Shown: piece by piece, positions 1 through 58,364 of the stretch
Layout of the letters: each line of letters starts with the position of its first letter
How positions within the stretch are numbered: position 1 is the first letter of the stretch
From: an uncultured Clostridia bacterium
GTDB taxonomy: Bacteria; Bacillota; Clostridia; Oscillospirales; JAAYOS01
Direction of reading: 5' to 3'
Assembly: GCA_947593925.1 (NCBI GenBank)
Contig: CANQDU010000001.1
Location: 141,188-205,187 of the forward strand
Length of the DNA: 64,000 nucleotides
Made by a program: the position numbers and the translations under genes
Notes under the pieces: generated by a model
What the model was told of the DNA's origin: nothing
Seen by the model: only the letters and a program-made list of their open reading frames with translations
Databases searched by the model: none

Positions 1-1152
1 GATATGAACGACCGCCAGCTCCGCTACATAGTTGACGGCATGGGCGGCAAGGCGCACGGCGTCGTGCGTGAGGACGGGTTCCAGATAACCGTCGCCACCG
101 AGGTCATGGCGCTCTTCTGCCTTGCCACCTCGCTTGACGACCTCAAGGCGCGCTGCGCGCGCATCGTCATAGGCGAGACATACTCCGGCGAGCGCGTGAC
201 GGCGGGCGACCTCCACGCCGAGGGCGCAATGGCGGCGCTTCTGCGGGACGCGCTCTCCCCGAACCTCGTCCAAACGCTCGAGCACACCCCCGCCATCGTC
301 CACGGCGGACCGTTCGCGAACATCGCGCACGGCTGCAACAGCGTCAGCGCGACGAAGCTCGCCCTCAAGCTCGGCGAGTACTGCGTCACGGAGGCCGGCT
401 TCGGCGCCGACCTCGGCGCGGAGAAGTTCCTTGACATCAAGTGCCGCATGGCGGGTCTCCGGCCGGACGCGTGCGTGATAGTCGCCACCATCCGCGCGAT
501 GAAGCACCACGGCGGCGGAGACGACCTCGCGGCGCTCGAGGCGGGCTTTGCAAACCTCGAGCGGCACATCCGCAACATCCGCGAGGTGTACAATCTCAGC
601 GCGGCGGTCGCGATAAACCGCTTCACCACCGACACCGACGAGGAAGTCGCGCTCGTTCAGCGCCTCTGCGAGAACATCGGCGCGAAGGCTGTTCCCGTAA
701 CGATATGGGCGGACGGCGGCGCGGGCGGCACGGAGCTTGCAAAGGAGGTCGTCCGTCTCTGCGAGGAAGGCAAGAGCGACCTCACCTACTGCTACCCGGA
801 CGAGATGAAGCTGAAGGACAAGATACGCGCCGTCGTGAAGCGCGTGTACCGCGGCAAGGGCGTGACGTTCGCCGCGCCGGCGTCCCGCGAGCTGAACCGC
901 CTCCAGAAGGAGGGCTACGGGAACCTCCCGGTCTGCATCGCAAAGACGCAGTATTCCTTCTCGGACAATCCGAAGCTGCTCGCCGCCCCGGAGGACTTCG
1001 AGGTGACGATACGCGACGTGCGCCTCAGCGCCGGCGCGGGCTTCGTCGTCGCGTATGCCGGCGACATCATGACGATGCCGGGTCTCCCGCCCGTCCCCGC
1101 CGCCGAGAGCATCGACCTCGACGAGGACGGAAATATCGTAGGACTATTTTAA
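1..1152 (+). CDS. fhs: Formate--tetrahydrofolate ligase, C-terminal part (5' end outside window)
   Basis: The reading frame is open from base 1. The translation ([13 protein letters not shown]...[14 protein letters not shown]...AKTQYSFSD) matches the conserved FTHFS family sequence. Confidence 0.9.
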
Positions 1153-1156
1153 GATT

Positions 1157-1417
1157 TCGCTGCAAATCGCGGGCGCGGATTTCATCCGCGCCCTTACCAA
1201 TTTGCAGCGAGAGTTCACTTGGAATTGCACAGGTGCAATTCCAAGTGAAGCTGTCGGATAGGGCGAAGCCCTACCGACAGCGGACGCCGTTCTTCGTTCC
1301 TCGCGGGCTCTGCCCGCTCGAAACGCGAACGGCGATAGGAGTTTTTTCCGACGTACACGCCGTCGGAAAAAACATTCAACTCATTTCGCCGCTAAAGCGG
1401 CGAAACTCTGCGAGGCT
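1157..1417 (+). repeat. Mosaic hairpin composite R1 (modules A-B-C-D-Eshort), starting 4 nt after the fhs stop codon
   Basis: It contains module A 1157-1210, B 1214-1249, C 1251-1280, D 1285-1334, a hairpin at 1342-1372, and the E tail hairpin plus AAACTCTGCGAGGCT at 1383-1417. Each module recurs elsewhere in the window. Confidence 0.8.
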
Positions 1418-1424
1418 GAAATAA

Positions 1425-1452
1425 CGGACGGTGCGATTTGTCGCACCGTCCG
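1425..1452. terminator. Stem-loop between convergent genes (likely bidirectional terminator)
   Basis: A 12-bp perfect stem (cggacggtgcga/tcgcaccgtccg) with loop tttg lies between the fhs end and the end of the minus-strand lipoprotein gene. Confidence 0.55.
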
Positions 1453-13228: not shown

Positions 13229-13270
13229 AAGCTCCACATCTTATTACCGGATGCGGAGCTTTTATTTTTT
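13229..13270 (+). terminator. Rho-independent terminator after the HPr-like gene
   Basis: An imperfect stem (aagctccacatc/gatgcggagctt) is followed by a T-run. Confidence 0.5.
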
Positions 13271-13313
13271 ACGGAAGAAACGCGGGCACTGCCCGCCGAA
13301 AGGACGGAACAAG

Positions 13314-14462
13314 ATGAAGAAAACTGCGACCCTGCTCGTTTTGGCCCTGCTCGCGGGTCTGCTCCCGCTCTCGGGCGCGAGCGCGGAGGTGCCCGCCGCG
13401 CCGACGGTCTCCGCCGCGGCGGCGTGTCTGATGGAACGGGACACCGGGCGCGTTCTCTACGAGCAGAACGCGCACGAGGCGATGCCTCCCGCGTCGGTGA
13501 CAAAGGTGATGAGCCTCCTCCTGATATGCGAGGCGCTGAACGACGGCCGCCTCACTCTTGACGGCACGGTGACCTGCTCGGAGCACGCAGCGTCGATGGG
13601 CGGCAGCCAGATCTACCTCGAGCCGGGCGAGGAGATGTCGGTCGAGGACATGCTGAAGTCGGTCGTGATGGGTTCCGCGAACGACGCCGTCGTCGCGCTC
13701 GCGGAGGCCGTCGCGGGCAGCGAGGATAGCTTCGTCGCGATGATGAACGCCCGCTCGAAGGAGCTCGGCATGAACGACTCGACTTGGAAGAACGCCTGCG
13801 GCCTCGACGTCGAGGGGCACGTCACGAGCGCCTACGACATAGCGGTCATGAGCCGCGCGCTGCTTCTCGAGTATCCCGAAATCAAGAAGTACACGACGAC
13901 ATGGATGGACAGCGTGCGCGGCGGCGAGTTTCAGCTTGCCAACACCAACAAGCTCGTCCGAAGCTACTCCGGCATAACCGGCCTCAAGACCGGCTACACC
14001 TCCACCGCCGGCCACTGCCTCTCCGCGACGGCGGAGCGGGACGGCATGGAGCTGATCTGCGCCGTTCTGAAGGGGCCGAGCTCGTCGGAACGGTTCGAGG
14101 CGGCGCGTCAGCTCCTTGACTACGGGTTTGCGAACTACGCCGTCGCCGACCTCACCGACGGCGCTGGCGCGATAGCGCCGGTGCCGGTCGAGATGGGCCG
14201 CGCGGACACGGTCGCCGCCGCGCCGGAGGGCGGCGGCAGGGTGCTCGTCGAGCGCGGCGAGCTCAGCTCGGTGACGCACGAGGTCTCCGTCGTCGAGTCC
14301 ATCCCCGCGCCGGTGTCGGTCGGGGACGCGCTCGGCGAGGTGATAGTCCGCGCCGGCGACCGCGAGCTCGCGCGGATACCGATAGTCGCGACCGAGTCCG
14401 TGGCGCGGCTCACCTTCGGGGACGTGTATACTGATCTGCTGAGAAAGCTGTTCTTTGAATAA
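13314..14462 (+). CDS. D-alanyl-D-alanine carboxypeptidase (serine-type, PBP5/S11 family)
   Basis: A signal peptide (MKKTATLLVLALLAG) and the SVTK (SxxK), SAN(D) and KTG motifs are present. Confidence 0.85.
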   Translation: MKKTATLLVLALLAGLLPLSGASAEVPAAPTVSAAAACLMERDTGRVLYEQNAHEAMPPASVTKVMSLLLICEALNDGRLTLDGTVTCSEHAASMGGSQIYLEPGEEMSVEDMLKSVVMGSANDAVVALAEAVAGSEDSFVAMMNARSKELGMNDSTWKNACGLDVEGHVTSAYDIAVMSRALLLEYPEIKKYTTTWMDSVRGGEFQLANTNKLVRSYSGITGLKTGYTSTAGHCLSATAERDGMELICAVLKGPSSSERFEAARQLLDYGFANYAVADLTDGAGAIAPVPVEMGRADTVAAAPEGGGRVLVERGELSSVTHEVSVVESIPAPVSVGDALGEVIVRAGDRELARIPIVATESVARLTFGDVYTDLLRKLFFE

Positions 14463-14469
14463 TCGCGTT

Positions 14470-14514
14470 CGCGGGGAATAAGGAGCGGGCAAAGCCCGCT
14501 CCTTATTCCCCGCG
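14470..14514 (+). repeat. Stop-proximal long hairpin (first module of composite R3), 8 nt after the dacB-like stop
   Basis: The sequence is cgcggggaataaggagcgggc-aaa-gcccgctccttattccccgcg. It is homologous to 38739..38787, with a compensatory mid-stem. Confidence 0.75.
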
Positions 14515-14517
14515 AGA

Positions 14518-14843: not shown

Positions 14844-15515
14844 TTACTTCGCGCCGTACTCGGCGAGGTAGGCCTCCATCTTCGCGCGGGTGGCGTCGTC
14901 GATGTAGACCTTTCCGTCCACCTCGCGGTTATGCAGGCTCTCTATCACGTCGTACACCGTCGCTATCGGGCAGACCTTCAGGCCGAACTCGTCCTCGAGC
15001 TCGTCGAGAGCGGCGCGGACGCCCTGTCCGCGTTCGCGGCGGTCGATAGAGACTATCAGCGCCGCGAGCTTCACGTCCGCCGCCGATTTCAGTATCTCCG
15101 CGCTCTCGCGGACGGCGGTGCCGGCGGTGACGACGTCCTCCACTATCACTATGCGGTCGCCGTCCTTCGGCTTGTATCCGACAAGGCTGCCGCCCTCGCC
15201 GTGGTCCTTGGCCTCCTTGCGGTTGAAGAAGTACGGCTTATCGACGCCGTAGAGCCGCCACAGCGACGCGGCGGCGGCCGAGGCGAGCGGTATCCCCTTG
15301 TACGCGGGGCCGAACAGCGCGTCGAAGTCGGTCCCGAAGTCCTCCATTATCGTGCGGGCGTAGAGGTCGCCGAGCGCGGCGAGCTCCGCGCCGGTGCGGA
15401 AGTTGCCGGTGTTGACGAAGTACGGCGTCTTCCGTCCGCTCTTTGTGACGAAGTCGCCGAAGGTGAGCACGCCGGAGCGCACCATCAGTTCTATAAGCTC
15501 GCTTTTTCTGCTCAT
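14844..15515 (-). CDS. pyrE: Orotate phosphoribosyltransferase
   Basis: FGDFVTKSGRKTPYFVN and VIVEDVVTAGTA (PRPP-binding loop) are present. The start is at MSRKSELIE (15515). Confidence 0.9.
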   Translation of the reverse strand: MSRKSELIELMVRSGVLTFGDFVTKSGRKTPYFVNTGNFRTGAELAALGDLYARTIMEDFGTDFDALFGPAYKGIPLASAAAASLWRLYGVDKPYFFNRKEAKDHGEGGSLVGYKPKDGDRIVIVEDVVTAGTAVRESAEILKSAADVKLAALIVSIDRRERGQGVRAALDELEDEFGLKVCPIATVYDVIESLHNREVDGKVYIDDATRAKMEAYLAEYGAK

Positions 15516-15603
15516 GTCTGTCCTCCGAAAAGAATTCTCCGGACTAGGATACCACATTCCGGCGCATGATGCAAGAGAGAAAGTTTCAAACAGTCTACCG
15601 ACC

Positions 15604-15695
15604 GTTTGGGAATTGCGCCTGCGCAGTTCCAAGTGAACTTTTCGCTGCAAATTGGTAAGGGCGCGGATAAAATCCGCGCCCGCGATTTGCAGCGA
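15604..15695 (-). repeat. Composite R4: modules A (15642-15695) and B (15604-15637), inverted, starting 6 nt after the stop of the minus-strand gene 15702..16112
   Basis: The reverse complement of 15642-15695 equals 1157-1210 except for one loop base. Confidence 0.85.
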
Positions 15696-25676: not shown

Positions 25677-25853
25677 AGCCTCGCAGAGTTTCGCTGCTTC
25701 AGCGGCAAAATAAAGTTCGATCTGTTTTTTTCCGACGACAATGCGCCCGCCAACATATACCGTGCTTAACATTCTACCGGGCGCATCAGACCTCGGCGCT
25801 TCGCGCCGAGGTCCCAACATTGTACGAACCATAGGGCGAAATTTACACCTCTC
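25677..25853 (-). repeat. Module E, long form, copy 3 (inverted)
   Basis: Its reverse complement aligns with 14601..14778, including gagaggtgtaaat, gggacCtcggcgcgaagcgccgaggtc, gatgcgccc...gggcgcatt and the tail aaactctgcgaggct. Confidence 0.8.
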
Positions 25854-26026: not shown

Positions 26027-26110
26027 GCCGCCGGCAGGACTTTGTCCTGTCCGGCGGCTTCGCGGAAAATTGAAGGGGGCAGACAAAGTCTGCCCCCTCG
26101 ATTTTCCGCG
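26027..26110 (-). repeat. Module C copy (26027-26058) plus stop-proximal nested hairpin (26061-26110), starting 6 nt after the oadB stop
   Basis: The nested hairpin is cgcggaaaat..agggggcagac-aaa-gtctgccccct..attttccgcg. The inner stem recurs at 58322-58349. Confidence 0.75.
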
Positions 26111-26116
26111 AAAGTT

Positions 26117-27301
26117 TTACGCGCCCAGCGCCTGCATCGCGGCGAGCAGGAAGCCCGCGGCGACGGCGGAGCCGATAACGCCCGCGACGTTCGGACCCAT
26201 GGCGTGCATGAGCAGGAAGTTCGAGGGATTTGCCTTCTGACCCTCGACCTGCGACACGCGCGCCGCCATCGGGACGGCGGACACGCCGGCCGAGCCGATA
26301 AGCGGGTTGATCTTGCCGTGAGTGAGCCAGCACATGAGCTTGCCGAGCAGCAGGCCGCCGACGGTCGAGAAGCAGAACGCCAGCAGTCCGAGCGCTATGA
26401 TGCAGAGCGTGCGGACCTGGAGGAAGTTCGAGCCGACAGTCGTTGCGCCGACCGAGATGCTGAGGAATATCGTGACGATGTTCATCAGCGCGTTCTGCGC
26501 GGTGTCGCTGAGACGGTCAGTGACGCCGCACTCCTTGAGCAGGTTGCCGAGCATCAGCATACCGAGCAGCGGAGCCACGGACGGCAGAAGCAGCACGGTG
26601 AAGATGGTCACGACTATCGGGAAAATTATCTTCTCGCGCTTGGTGACGGTGCGGAGCTGCTCCATCTTTATCTCGCGCTCCTTCTTCGTCGTCAGCAGCC
26701 GCATGAGCGGAGGCTGAATGAGCGGTATCAGCGCCATGTAGCTGTACGCCGCTATCGCTATCGGGCCGAGAAGGTCGGGCGCGAGCTTGTTTGTGAGCCA
26801 GATGGCGGTCGGGCCGTCCGCGCCGCCGATGATGCCTATCGAGGCCGCCTCGTTGCCGAAGAAGCCGAGCAGCAGGGCGAGCATGAACGCGCAGTAGACG
26901 CCGAGCTGTGCCGCCGCGCCGAGGAAGAGCGACTTCGGGTTGGAGAGCAGCGGGCCGAAGTCGGTCATCGCGCCGACGCCGAGGAATATCAGCGACGGAT
27001 AGATGCCGGTCTTGACGCCGATGTAGAGTATGTCGAGCAGGCCGCCCTCATGCAGCACCTTGGAGTAGCTGATGTTCTCCGGCGCACCCGCCCACAGCTC
27101 CGGGTGATACACACCCGCACCGGGGAGGTTCGTGAGCAGCGTTCCGAACGCTATGCCGACAAGCAGCAGCGGCTCGAATTTCTTGACGATGCCCAGGTAG
27201 AGAAGAACGCACGCGACGATTATCATCACGAGGTTCTGCCAGTTTCCGCCCGCCTGGTAGAAACCGGATGTCTCCCAGACTCTCTGAATTACTTCTAACA
27301 T
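26117..27301 (-). CDS. oadB: Sodium ion-translocating decarboxylase, beta subunit
   Basis: The polytopic protein shows strong OadB/GcdB/MmdB family similarity (GIAFGTLLTNLPG, IIGGADGPT, SAGVSAVPMAARV). Confidence 0.9.
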   Translation of the reverse strand: MLEVIQRVWETSGFYQAGGNWQNLVMIIVACVLLYLGIVKKFEPLLLVGIAFGTLLTNLPGAGVYHPELWAGAPENISYSKVLHEGGLLDILYIGVKTGIYPSLIFLGVGAMTDFGPLLSNPKSLFLGAAAQLGVYCAFMLALLLGFFGNEAASIGIIGGADGPTAIWLTNKLAPDLLGPIAIAAYSYMALIPLIQPPLMRLLTTKKEREIKMEQLRTVTKREKIIFPIVVTIFTVLLLPSVAPLLGMLMLGNLLKECGVTDRLSDTAQNALMNIVTIFLSISVGATTVGSNFLQVRTLCIIALGLLAFCFSTVGGLLLGKLMCWLTHGKINPLIGSAGVSAVPMAARVSQVEGQKANPSNFLLMHAMGPNVAGVIGSAVAAGFLLAAMQALGA

Positions 27302-57280: not shown

Positions 57281-57379
57281 CGCGCGCAAAAGTTTTTCTT
57301 ACATTCCGGCCCTGAAATATGTTATAATCGGTATAAAGACGGATGAAAGAAGCTTTGCGCTGCGGAAAGGTGAGTTTTG

Positions 57380-57883
57380 ATGTATCTGGTAGGAGAAACG
57401 GTGGTCTACGGGCTCATGGGAGTATGCGTAGTCGAGGCCGTAGGCGAGCTTGATATGCAGGGCGCGGACAAGGGCAGGAGCTACTACACCCTCGCGCCTC
57501 TACACCGGGACGGGAAGATATTTGCCCCGGTGGATACGTCGGTCGCCATGCGCCGCGCCATGACGCGGGAACAGGCGATGGAGCTCATTCGCAGCATGCC
57601 CGCCATAGAGCGCGACACCTACGAAAGCAACAATCCGCGCATGCTCGACGAGCATTACAGGACGTATCTGAAAAGCGGGGACTGCGTGGATCTCGTGCGG
57701 GTCGTGCGGACGGTCTACGCCAAGAGCCGCCTCGCCGCCGAGAAGGGACGCCGCCTCGGTCAGGTGGACGAACGGAGCATGAAGCGCGCGGAGGAGATGC
57801 TGTATGACGAGCTCGCCTTTGCCCTCGACATGCGCCCGGACGAGGTGAAGGACTTCATCTGCGTGACGCTGGGAGACAAATAA
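57380..57883 (+). CDS. CarD/CdnL-family transcriptional regulator-like protein
   Basis: A CarD_TRCF-like N-terminus (GETVVYGLMGVCVVEAV...YYTL) is followed by a helical C-terminus. Confidence 0.75.
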   Translation: MYLVGETVVYGLMGVCVVEAVGELDMQGADKGRSYYTLAPLHRDGKIFAPVDTSVAMRRAMTREQAMELIRSMPAIERDTYESNNPRMLDEHYRTYLKSGDCVDLVRVVRTVYAKSRLAAEKGRRLGQVDERSMKRAEEMLYDELAFALDMRPDEVKDFICVTLGDK

Positions 57884-57887
57884 AACT

Positions 57888-57941
57888 TCGCTGCAAATCG
57901 CGGGCGCGGATTTCATCCGCGCCCTTACCAATTTGCAGCGA
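57888..57941 (+). repeat. Module A, copy 3, starting 4 nt after the carD-like stop
   Basis: It is identical to 1157-1210 over 54 nt. Confidence 0.9.
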
Positions 57942-57942
57942 A

Positions 57943-57974
57943 GCCGCCGGACAAGGCGTAGCCTTGCCGGCGGC
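57943..57974 (+). repeat. Module C copy
   Basis: The sequence is gccgccggacaaggcgtagccttgccggcggc. Confidence 0.7.
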
Positions 57975-58112
57975 AGCGCTCCGCTACGCATTCCCACGCG
58001 GTCGGCGACCGCGTGGGAGCCCTTCCGATTAAAATGCTCGCCCCGAATGAATCGGGGCTCCGCGAAGTTGCTTGCCTGTGGCAAGCAACTTCAACCGCGC
58101 GAACCGGCGCGG
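57975..58112 (+). repeat. Four-hairpin module F, copy 3
   Basis: It is colinear with the reverse complements of 10943..11080 and 25887..26025. Confidence 0.8.
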
Positions 58113-58149
58113 AGTGCGGCTCCGCCGTCTTCGACGCACGCTCCGCACA

Positions 58150-58302
58150 GTACACAGTCGGGACGTCGGCGCGAAGCGCCGACGTCTGATGCGCCCGGAA
58201 GAAGGTCGGATGAGGTATTGGTTCGAGGGCGCATTGTACACGCCGTCGGAAAAAATGAATTTAACTCTATTTCGCGCCCTTGGCGCGAAACTCTGCGAGG
58301 CT
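58150..58302 (+). repeat. Module E, copy 5
   Basis: gggacgtcggcgcgaagcgccgacgtc, gatgcgccc..gggcgcatt and atttcgcgcccttggcgcgaaactctgcgaggct are present. Confidence 0.8.
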
Positions 58303-58321: not shown

Positions 58322-58349
58322 AAGGGGGCAGACTTTCGTCTGCCCCCTT
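58322..58349. terminator. Hairpin closing composite R8 (between the convergent carD-like gene and proC)
   Basis: The sequence is aagggggcagac-tttc-gtctgccccctt. Confidence 0.5.
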
Positions 58350-58364
58350 CTGTGCACTGTGACA

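Follow-up and report, generated by a model that had tools for sequence, protein, structure and literature searches.

A nested hairpin directly behind stop codons appears to be the head of a polar mosaic repeat in one subclade of uncultured gut Clostridia

The gene fhs, a gene encoding a CarD-like protein and a short open reading frame (ORF) on the minus strand lie far apart in a stretch of 64,000 nt from contig CANQDU010000001.1 of an uncultured Clostridia bacterium, and each of them is followed, directly behind its stop codon, by the same 54-base nested hairpin. We refer to the whole stretch as the window and to the hairpin as module A, and we consider here what kind of element this hairpin belongs to. 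A sequence-only reading of the window had described three near-identical copies situated 4 to 6 nt after stop codons, and this description was confirmed. A pattern search gave exactly three matches in the window, with 0, 0 and 1 mismatch, and none in 100 shuffles, and the spacers, counted from the ORF ends at 1152, 57883 and 15702 (minus strand), are 4, 4 and 6 nt (Table 1). The fold that had been proposed is also the predicted one, an 11-bp outer stem and a 10-bp inner stem separated by a 3x6 internal loop, with an energy of -34.5 kcal/mol as RNA (z -7.9) and of -23.7 kcal/mol as DNA (z -7.9). The opposite strand folds equally well. The three close copies are not the only head hairpins in the window, as two more had been overlooked. 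One is a degenerate module A, 5 nt past the stop codon (26117-26119) of ORF 26117-27301, which heads a row of further hairpins extending down to about position 25678. The other, which we call an A3-type head, lies 6 nt past the stop codon (14460-14462) of ORF 13251-14462. It consists of the outer stem and the inner hairpin of one module A variant without the asymmetric loop, so that a continuous palindrome results. The name "P-loop gene", given earlier to the ORF before copy 2, did not hold up: the 136-aa ORF has no Pfam family and only a faint P-loop-like match in NCBIfam.

Table 1. Head hairpins, adjoining genes, trains and terminator in the window (positions counted from the first letter of the window; R1, covariance model of module A; F, tail module of a train; G000, the genome holding the window; C1, contig)
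Feature	Position	Strand	Evidence and remarks
Stop codon TAA of fhs	1150-1152	+	ORF end 1152; Pfam FTHFS (formate-tetrahydrofolate ligase); spacer to copy 1 of 4 nt
Module A, copy 1 (head hairpin)	1157-1210	+	Exact match, 0 mismatches; R1 match of 65.8 bits
Copy-1 train, A-B-C-D-E-F	1157-1416	+	Sequence; end AACTCTGCGAGGC; F motif G000:C1:142591-142603 = window 1404-1416
Native intrinsic terminator after copy-1 train	1425-1452	+	Hairpin plus T-rich tail; sole terminator-like site in 1000-1600
A3-type head	14469-14515	+	Weak R1 match on both strands; sequence
Module A, copy 2 (head hairpin)	15642-15695	-	1 mismatch, loop TTC to TTT
ORF before copy 2, 136 aa	15702-16112	-	Stop codon 15702-15704; spacer to copy 2 of 6 nt
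Fourth, degenerate module A	26060-26111	-	Loops CGA / TTCA; R1 match of 48 bits; F motif C1:166865-166877
CarD-like gene	57377-57883	+	Stop codon 57881-57883; Pfam CarD domains; spacer to copy 3 of 4 nt
Module A, copy 3 (head hairpin)	57888-57941	+	Exact match, 0 mismatches
Copy-3 train, A-C-D, nested G/H/I/J, then E-F	57888-58301	+	F motif C1:199476-199488 = window 58289-58301

The genome that holds the window (G000) is a draft of 1.87 Mb with 61% G+C. We compared it within a set of six genomes of its genus that are 90-98% complete, four of which bear the repeat described below (G000, G001, G003 and G005) and two of which are naive (G002 and G004); C-numbers denote contigs and L-numbers labelled sequences of relatives. 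Judged from the sequence, module A heads a mosaic repeat and does not stand alone, because each copy precedes other shared hairpin modules in a fixed order. These rows of modules, which we call trains, are 150-450 nt long and run in the order A, optional B, C, D, optional nested G/H/I/J, E and F, with further modules nested in the middle of the longer trains. The signatures of the modules are GTTCACTTGGAA... for B, GCCGCCGGACAGAGC... for C, GCGCTCCGCTACGC... for D, ...CGTACACGCCG... for E and ATTTCGCCGC...GCGGCGAAACTCTGCGAGGC for F. Trains start with TTCGCGGCAAAT... and finish with ...AACTCTGCGAGGCT, two ends that are not inverted copies of each other, and they are flanked by A-rich bases plus TT on the left and by a T on the right, with no duplication. 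At copy 1, the region 1140-1465 folds into six independent hairpins in a row plus the terminator (-181 kcal/mol, z -15.6), and this terminator is also preserved behind the trains of G003 and G005. No module B or C is located 13 nt or less from a stop codon, and C clusters 50-61 nt away, just behind the head. Heads of a second family, A2 (TCGGCGCGAAATGTGCTCG-hairpin-CTGCGCACCCTTTCGCGCCGA), number about 18 in G000 and follow stop codons directly (for example, C2:89485, C6:124760 and C3:164567). The middle helix of A2 holds a conserved T-G pair, and A2 swaps with A at orthologous sites.

The inner hairpin of module A is a variable cassette, and some of its versions (GGGGGCAGAC..., GGGCGCGGAT...) also stand alone as terminator-like hairpins. 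One of these is found after the train of the carD-like gene, at window positions 58330-58360 (GGGGGCAGAC-TTTC-GTCTGCCCCC), and a native one at C4:164348 (G000:C4:164345-164372; GGGCGCGGAT-GAA-ATCCGCGCCC). Because such native terminator-like hairpins have the stems that form the inner hairpin of common A variants, the tip of module A looks like a captured or exchangeable hairpin of the terminator type. Module A as a whole could then be thought to be a family of intrinsic terminators directly behind genes, being a GC-rich hairpin just past stops whose inner part occurs alone in terminator-like form, but we consider this extremely improbable. The hairpin is followed by CTTACCAATTTGC and not by a T tract, a terminator scan does not call it, further repeat modules are always present behind the head, and in half of the cases a canonical terminator lies 200-450 nt further on. 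Module A was tried as an intrinsic terminator and rejected, as its tail is CUUACCAAUUUGC, with no U tract, and the scan calls only 1425-1452.

The repeat has a very restricted distribution. An alignment of 51 distinct module-A sequences (A1) was used to build a covariance model (R1), and a search with this model gave about 46 strong matches in G000 and 49-63 matches in each of G001, G003 and G005. R1 had no match in G002 and G004, which belong to the same genus, nor in 7 more genomes of the family, and a sample of 147 others from across the order gave none either. The tail motif F is present in 77-113 copies in each of the four repeat-bearing genomes and at background counts elsewhere. Because head and tail motif share one presence pattern, the genome comparison shows the repeat family to have been gained in one subclade of this genus of uncultured Clostridia/Oscillospiraceae. 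When 185,579 species genomes were scanned for the exact pattern, the motif turned up in only seven metagenome-assembled genomes (MAGs), which are labelled uncultured Clostridia or Oscillospiraceae and whose hosts are rabbit, mouse and water deer. In the four more distant of these seven, the core of A (AAATCGCG-hairpin-CTTACCAATT) is present in 4-23 copies and is embedded in another kind of element. This is a long, irregular hairpin, about 135 nt in length, that has other conserved loops besides and is mostly found behind T tracts and in one genome between tRNA genes. The 135-nt element is itself multi-copy; its extra loops have the conserved sequences CTTCCCTCCG / CGCTCCGGTCCAT, and direct repeats (ACGCTCGCG) flank it (sites L012:5660-5800 on the minus strand, L010, L035, L052-L063 and L147:2440-2575). 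Two IMG/VR viral contigs also have the distant-type form of the A core. At the gathering threshold, Rfam matched only a tRNA in the window, and for a distant-type copy, with E values up to 10, it gave only tRNAs and chance matches. In the literature that was searched, repeats of this kind were not found described for Oscillospiraceae or Ruminococcaceae.

Shortly 3' of the inner helix, the sequence ACCA does not vary among more than 70 distinct copies, nor does it in the distant genomes. Together with the distant form within a tRNA gene cluster in one genome, this could indicate a processing or tRNA-mimic signal, in which the inner helix plus UU-ACCA imitates an acceptor minihelix for RNase P, the CCA-adding enzyme or another RNA-binding protein. 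We give this possibility next to no credence: there is no match to an Rfam family, tRNA included, even at E = 10, and ACCA stands two bases off the end of the helix. Moreover, the inner helix is poor in the commonest (short) form of the module (-17.9 kcal/mol, z -1.9), and the A3 heads lack the loop altogether.

The position of the copies relative to genes was analysed with our own ORF and codon-usage calls, in which stop positions are exact and starts are over-extended. The approximately 46 copies in G000 are dispersed over 13 contigs, on both strands and after housekeeping genes. They are intergenic, except that the 5' arm of one head contains the TGA with which the upstream ORF ends. A co-oriented gene lies upstream of 37 of the 46 copies, and the co-oriented stop codon is at most 6 nt away in 23 copies and at most 13 nt away in 28. 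When copies were placed at random in intergenic DNA, the means were 0.6 and 1.2, respectively, and the maxima in 1000 trials were 4 and 5. The fixed spacing to unrelated stop codons that had been claimed for the window is therefore seen across the genome, and it is not the case that most copies lie far from stop codons or in either orientation, the outcome that the earlier reading had named as speaking against it. At least 9 copies are situated away from stops, several of them after a terminator or a tRNA gene and a few near gene starts. In intergenic regions between genes on the same strand, A is co-oriented with these genes in 19 cases and opposed in 5, and the tail F is co-oriented in 26 and opposed in 6 (p = 0.0005). 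An excess of trains is also seen between convergent genes. For the replication strand, judged by GC skew, no bias of module A was found (24 vs 22 among the 46 copies). The orientation of module A tracks the neighbouring genes and not the replication strand.

A canonical terminator is present 6-60 nt past the end of F in 13 of 26 stop-proximal trains, and a terminator between the stop codon and A in none of the 26. A native terminator duplicated to either side of an A-headed train was not seen, the upstream hairpin being different from the downstream one. At C4:171397 the native terminator (GAGCCGAT...ATCGGCTC) can still be recognised past a train of 235 nt. At the orthologous gene ends of the naive genomes G004 and G002, the stop codon is followed by 10-25 nt and then by a terminator or the next gene. 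The comparison of these gene ends shows that the trains occupy the spacer between stop and terminator at about 50 gene ends per genome. As the train is upstream of the terminator, it would be transcribed together with the gene, as the first part of the 3' untranslated region (3'UTR), a view that comes from the DNA alone.

Stop-codon usage next to the heads is also unusual. The adjoining stop is TAA in 20 of 28 cases, compared with 37% genome-wide (p = 0.0002), and TGA in 3 of 28, compared with 47% genome-wide, and of 13 sites compared, 6 read TAA in G000 where naive G004 has TGA. This TAA excess may mean that the unit carries its stop context, that insertion prefers A-rich sequence or that there is selection for the strongest stop beside a hairpin. 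At three head sites (G000:C6:110088-110110, C4:164645-164665 and C4:171378-171396), the last 7-10 coding bases reappear as their reverse complement right behind the stop, which puts the stop in the loop of a small hairpin; the sequences are CCACACGCGC-TAA-GCGCGTGTGG, TTTCGCAGT-AA-ACTGCGAAA and GCGAAGT-AAA-ACTTCGC. These palindromes are absent at the same sites in naive G004 and may be the footprint of hairpin-mediated or template-switch events.

Such a strict position could also be dictated by a selected RNA function. Module A would then primarily be a cis-acting 3'UTR element that, lying in the footprint of the terminating ribosome, tunes termination, ribosome release or trans-translation, or caps the mRNA against 3'-exonucleases, and its function would keep both position and loop. 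The sense orientation in 37 of 46 copies, the spacing of 1-6 nt, the enrichment of TAA and depletion of TGA beside heads and the place of the head upstream of the terminator, hence within the transcript, all agree with this explanation. Furthermore, A, A2, A3 and B are interchangeable at one stop distance, as if a strong hairpin is what matters, and the loop CGC/TTACCA stays the same as far away as the distant genomes. Escherichia coli offers a precedent: REPs within 15 nt of a stop codon are reported there to stall ribosomes, to reduce how much the upstream gene is translated and to influence mRNA decay (Liang et al. 2015, as summarised in PMC12306157). We judge an RNA function unlikely as the primary explanation. 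It keeps appreciable weight as the main rival because of the tight spacing, the interchangeable heads at one place, the fixed loop and the TAA excess. Against it stand the copies located away from stop codons, and also the two sets of results discussed next, the turnover of heads and the pairing in their stems.

To follow individual sites, we located 25 stop-proximal G000 sites in the three other repeat-bearing species and compared the sequence after the stop. Nearly all 25 are filled in all four species, with the head at the same distance from the stop (4/4/4/3 nt at fhs and 4/4/5/4 nt at the CarD-like gene). The heads themselves differ between species at one and the same site, where other combinations of A stem and inner hairpin, A2, A3 or B are found, and the flanking coding DNA at the compared sites is about 82-99% identical. 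At the fhs site there are four different A variants in four species, with two in tandem in G001. The reverse comparison, of A sites in the relatives with G000, showed precise swaps between identical flanks (ACTAAAAG, then A or A2, then AGCCGCCGG) and some truncated heads. No element is present at these sites in naive G002 and G004, two sister species that have plain terminators at the same genes. These comparisons of orthologous gene ends indicate that heads are being replaced and not slowly conserved. They turn over faster than the genes that flank them, which, like the plain terminators of the sister species, is not what a selected RNA function would predict. As orthologous sites carry different heads, the near-identity of the window copies reflects recent copying and not conservation of the site. 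The sequence-only reading had left the choice between recent spread and strong constraint; recent spread was supported, and strong constraint at each locus, as stated, was not.

The precise swaps between identical flanks, in G001 compared with G000, are what would be expected from a recombination site of the attC or dif kind, at which a tyrosine or serine recombinase swaps hairpin modules as cassettes. An imperfect palindrome that folds, keeps conserved bases unpaired, varies at its tip and is located directly behind ORFs would also suit such a site. We nevertheless regard this as very unlikely. The copies are dispersed after housekeeping genes on both strands and form no array, whereas integron attC sites belong to arrays of promoterless cassettes beside intI, and inspection of A1 revealed no core sites (R''/R' in attC) of the form RYYYAAC/GTTRRRY. 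The number of tyrosine recombinases does not go with the presence of the repeat, with 3-4 in naive G002 and G004 and 4 in G001, and the extra tyrosine recombinase gene of G000 (C1:311685-312152) has no repeat modules nearby. A tyrosine recombinase gene of about 310 aa is found in at least 5 copies in G003, in 3 in G005 and as a single copy in G000, was not seen in G001, G002 and G004, and is often located at contig ends (for example, G003:C7:76028-76489, C20:155-616 and C9:6-413). It is probably a separate mobile element.

The site of copy 2 has a history of its own. In naive G002 and G004 the genes that flank it overlap (TAATG) with no element between them, and from this comparison the insertion of the train seems to have uncoupled an operon junction. 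On the minus strand, the region 15510-15640 after the short train of copy 2 holds a promoter-like sequence (TTGCAT-17 nt-TATCCT) and a new ribosome-binding site, and the first codons of the phosphoribosyltransferase gene downstream differ from those in repeat-free relatives. In G003 there is no train after the 136-aa ORF (L097, G003:C22:28605-28926). Another gene, which reaches to the contig end, has its end there, and its C-terminus resembles a large serine recombinase. This suggests that another mobile element was inserted at the same stop-proximal spot in G003.

The second set of results that bears on the choice between RNA and DNA is the covariation in the stems. Standard pairs make up 93% of the stem cells in A1, compared with 80% in shuffles and about 40% with the partner shifted, and changes on both sides are seen in 14 of 22 pairs. 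In the outer stem of 74 distinct copies (814 pairs), we counted 790 Watson-Crick pairs, 5 G-T, 7 A-C and 12 other mismatches. Stem changes are almost all from one Watson-Crick pair to another, and as G-T is no commoner than A-C in the outer stem, the complementarity is strand-symmetric. Selection on RNA only would tolerate G-U and not A-C. Because A-C, a pair that is tolerated on the other strand only, is as frequent as G-T, this pattern of pairs fits a process at the level of DNA, be it templated correction between arms or wholesale copying, better than selection on RNA only. The internal loop, CGC on the 5' side and TTACCA on the 3' side, is invariant in A1. A pseudoknot partner for TTACCA was largely missing, as only 2 of 46 trains have a TGGTAA in the 450 nt that follow. 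In the A3 heads, the outer stem of A and the inner hairpin, minus the loop, form a perfect palindrome.

A process of the kind needed is known from mutagenesis studies in E. coli, namely quasipalindrome (templated) correction by intrastrand template switching. Copying from arm to arm would give Watson-Crick changes without G-T intermediates, on either strand, and would turn an imperfect A into the perfect palindrome A3. Hairpin-guided correction of one arm from the other would in this way keep the arms complementary. Such correction is a mutational process and not an element family, and we infer its action on module A.

Among element families, the REPs of Enterobacteria and Pseudomonas and the BIMEs that they build are an obvious comparison. 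Like these, trains contain extragenic imperfect palindromes in tens to hundreds of copies, form mosaics and are species-specific. They are also located at the 3' ends of genes, are apparently co-transcribed and in large part lie a few nucleotides past stop codons. In E. coli, REPs placed in this way stall ribosomes and make the mRNA more stable or less so. REPs have a conserved 5' GT(A/G)G head before the palindrome and keep their palindromy through paired changes (PMC2817692). It could be asked whether module A is moved in the manner of REP/REPIN or IS200/IS605 elements, as a single-stranded DNA hairpin handled by an HUH Y1 transposase (RAYT or TnpA). The many copies of an extragenic imperfect palindrome, the mosaics, the arms that remain complementary through paired changes and the TTAC within the conserved loop would all be consistent with this. 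The idea is largely refuted all the same, and we leave it scarcely any probability. PF01797 (Y1_Tnp, Y1/RAYT) had 0 matches in all six genus genomes, and the same search matched 6 of 14 control genomes, so that REPs and module A differ in the presence of a RAYT gene. Copies of module A begin with (T)TCGC... and A1 contains no GTAG or GTGG head. The train is a polar, ordered series of unlike hairpins in one orientation, unlike the alternating inverted REPs of a BIME, and the even split between lagging and leading strand (24 vs 22) is not what this type of transposition would give. Two further differences from REPs are the larger share of module A within 6 nt of a stop (50%) and the host, a Clostridia lineage of the Gram-positive type.

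BOX elements of Streptococcus pneumoniae (boxA-boxB(n)-boxC) are modular, ordered, polar and non-coding intergenic repeats of a Firmicute, with fixed first and last modules and optional internal ones. They fold strongly, have no transposase of their own and are often co-transcribed with their neighbours. Of the known families they are the closest to trains in architecture, and the likeness is one of architecture only. Trains have more module types than BOX, nested insertions in hairpin tips and interchangeable alternative heads, and a strict position behind stop codons is not a defining feature of BOX. The bacterial MITEs (Correia/NEMIS, ERIC/IRU, RUP, EFAR and others) are likewise small, non-coding, lineage-restricted stem-loop repeats at gene ends, and within transcripts they can serve in processing, in stability or as terminators (review PMC2229807). 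In contrast to MITEs, the train was found to have no terminal inverted repeats, no target-site duplication and no related autonomous insertion sequence, and module A alone (46-56 bp) does have inverted arms and is never accompanied by a duplicated target. Taken as it stands, module A has more in common with REP, BOX and MITE repeats than with a translation signal of a new kind.

We therefore consider it rather probable, with a good deal of reserve, that module A is the head of a selfish, polar, lineage-specific and non-coding mosaic repeat that is maintained at the level of DNA and co-transcribed as 3'UTR. Copies would be propagated and overwritten as DNA, by replacement of one copy by another or by re-insertion. 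A single copy would not be held by selection of its own, and the alikeness of copies would come from copying. The repeat would have settled at gene ends, where insertion spares the ORF, the terminator and the next promoter. A hairpin that starts 1-6 nt past the stop codon would be within reach of the terminating ribosome, and by analogy with the E. coli REPs one would expect the head to get in the way of termination or ribosome release, to stop 3'-exonucleases, or both. An effect on termination or mRNA decay is thus plausible, and stalling of ribosomes, lowered translation and altered decay would be the most likely activity of the head. In the reading that we favour, such an effect would be a side-effect that selection tolerates or exploits, and not the cause of the likeness between copies. 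The mobility of the repeat is deduced from its distribution and turnover only.

Several observations weigh against a mobile mosaic repeat of this kind. For the train, neither a target-site duplication nor terminal inverted repeats were found. In the closest relatives, compared in both directions, there was no clean pair of an empty and a filled site with unchanged flanks but only replacements or degenerate copies, and no such pair was found among the four repeat-bearing species. Ordinary gene conversion cannot easily replace a head that has a unique coding flank on its left. The tight stop spacing, the invariant loop, in distant genomes as well, and the TAA excess could indicate a selected RNA function. 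A mobilising enzyme was not found either. Besides the lack of Y1/RAYT matches, no PF01548 (IS110 DEDD) or PF00665 (rve) domain was found in G000, TnpB-like matches were below the cut-off only, and the tyrosine recombinases, as described above, do not track the repeat. As MAGs frequently lack transposases, the absence of one is not proven.

A bolder version of the mobile repeat would be that the heads (A, A2 and A3) are installed and renewed specifically at stop sites by a mechanism that reads gene ends. The unit would then carry its stop context (TAA, an A-rich spacer and TT), the CGC/TTACCA loop would dock a putative protein, and the whole would be a self-propagating 3'UTR element. We hold this to be quite improbable. 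If it is true, heads installed at stops would reset the stop codon and modulate termination or mRNA fate at about 50 genes together.

Repeats of the REP, BOX and MITE type have been studied mainly in Proteobacteria and streptococci, and the trains described here would add a mosaic without RAYT in uncultured gut Clostridia. They combine a strict position at stop codons, with half of the heads within 6 nt, with polarity relative to the upstream gene and with rapid replacement of heads at fixed sites. Trains break assemblies and can mislead the annotation of gene ends and terminators in MAGs. As perfect palindromes are apparently kept up without a known transposase, the repeat is also a case for their upkeep at the level of DNA. 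Finally, the different heads at orthologous gene ends provide a natural series of constructs with which the effects of stop-adjacent hairpins on termination, ribosome rescue and mRNA decay may be studied in Firmicutes.

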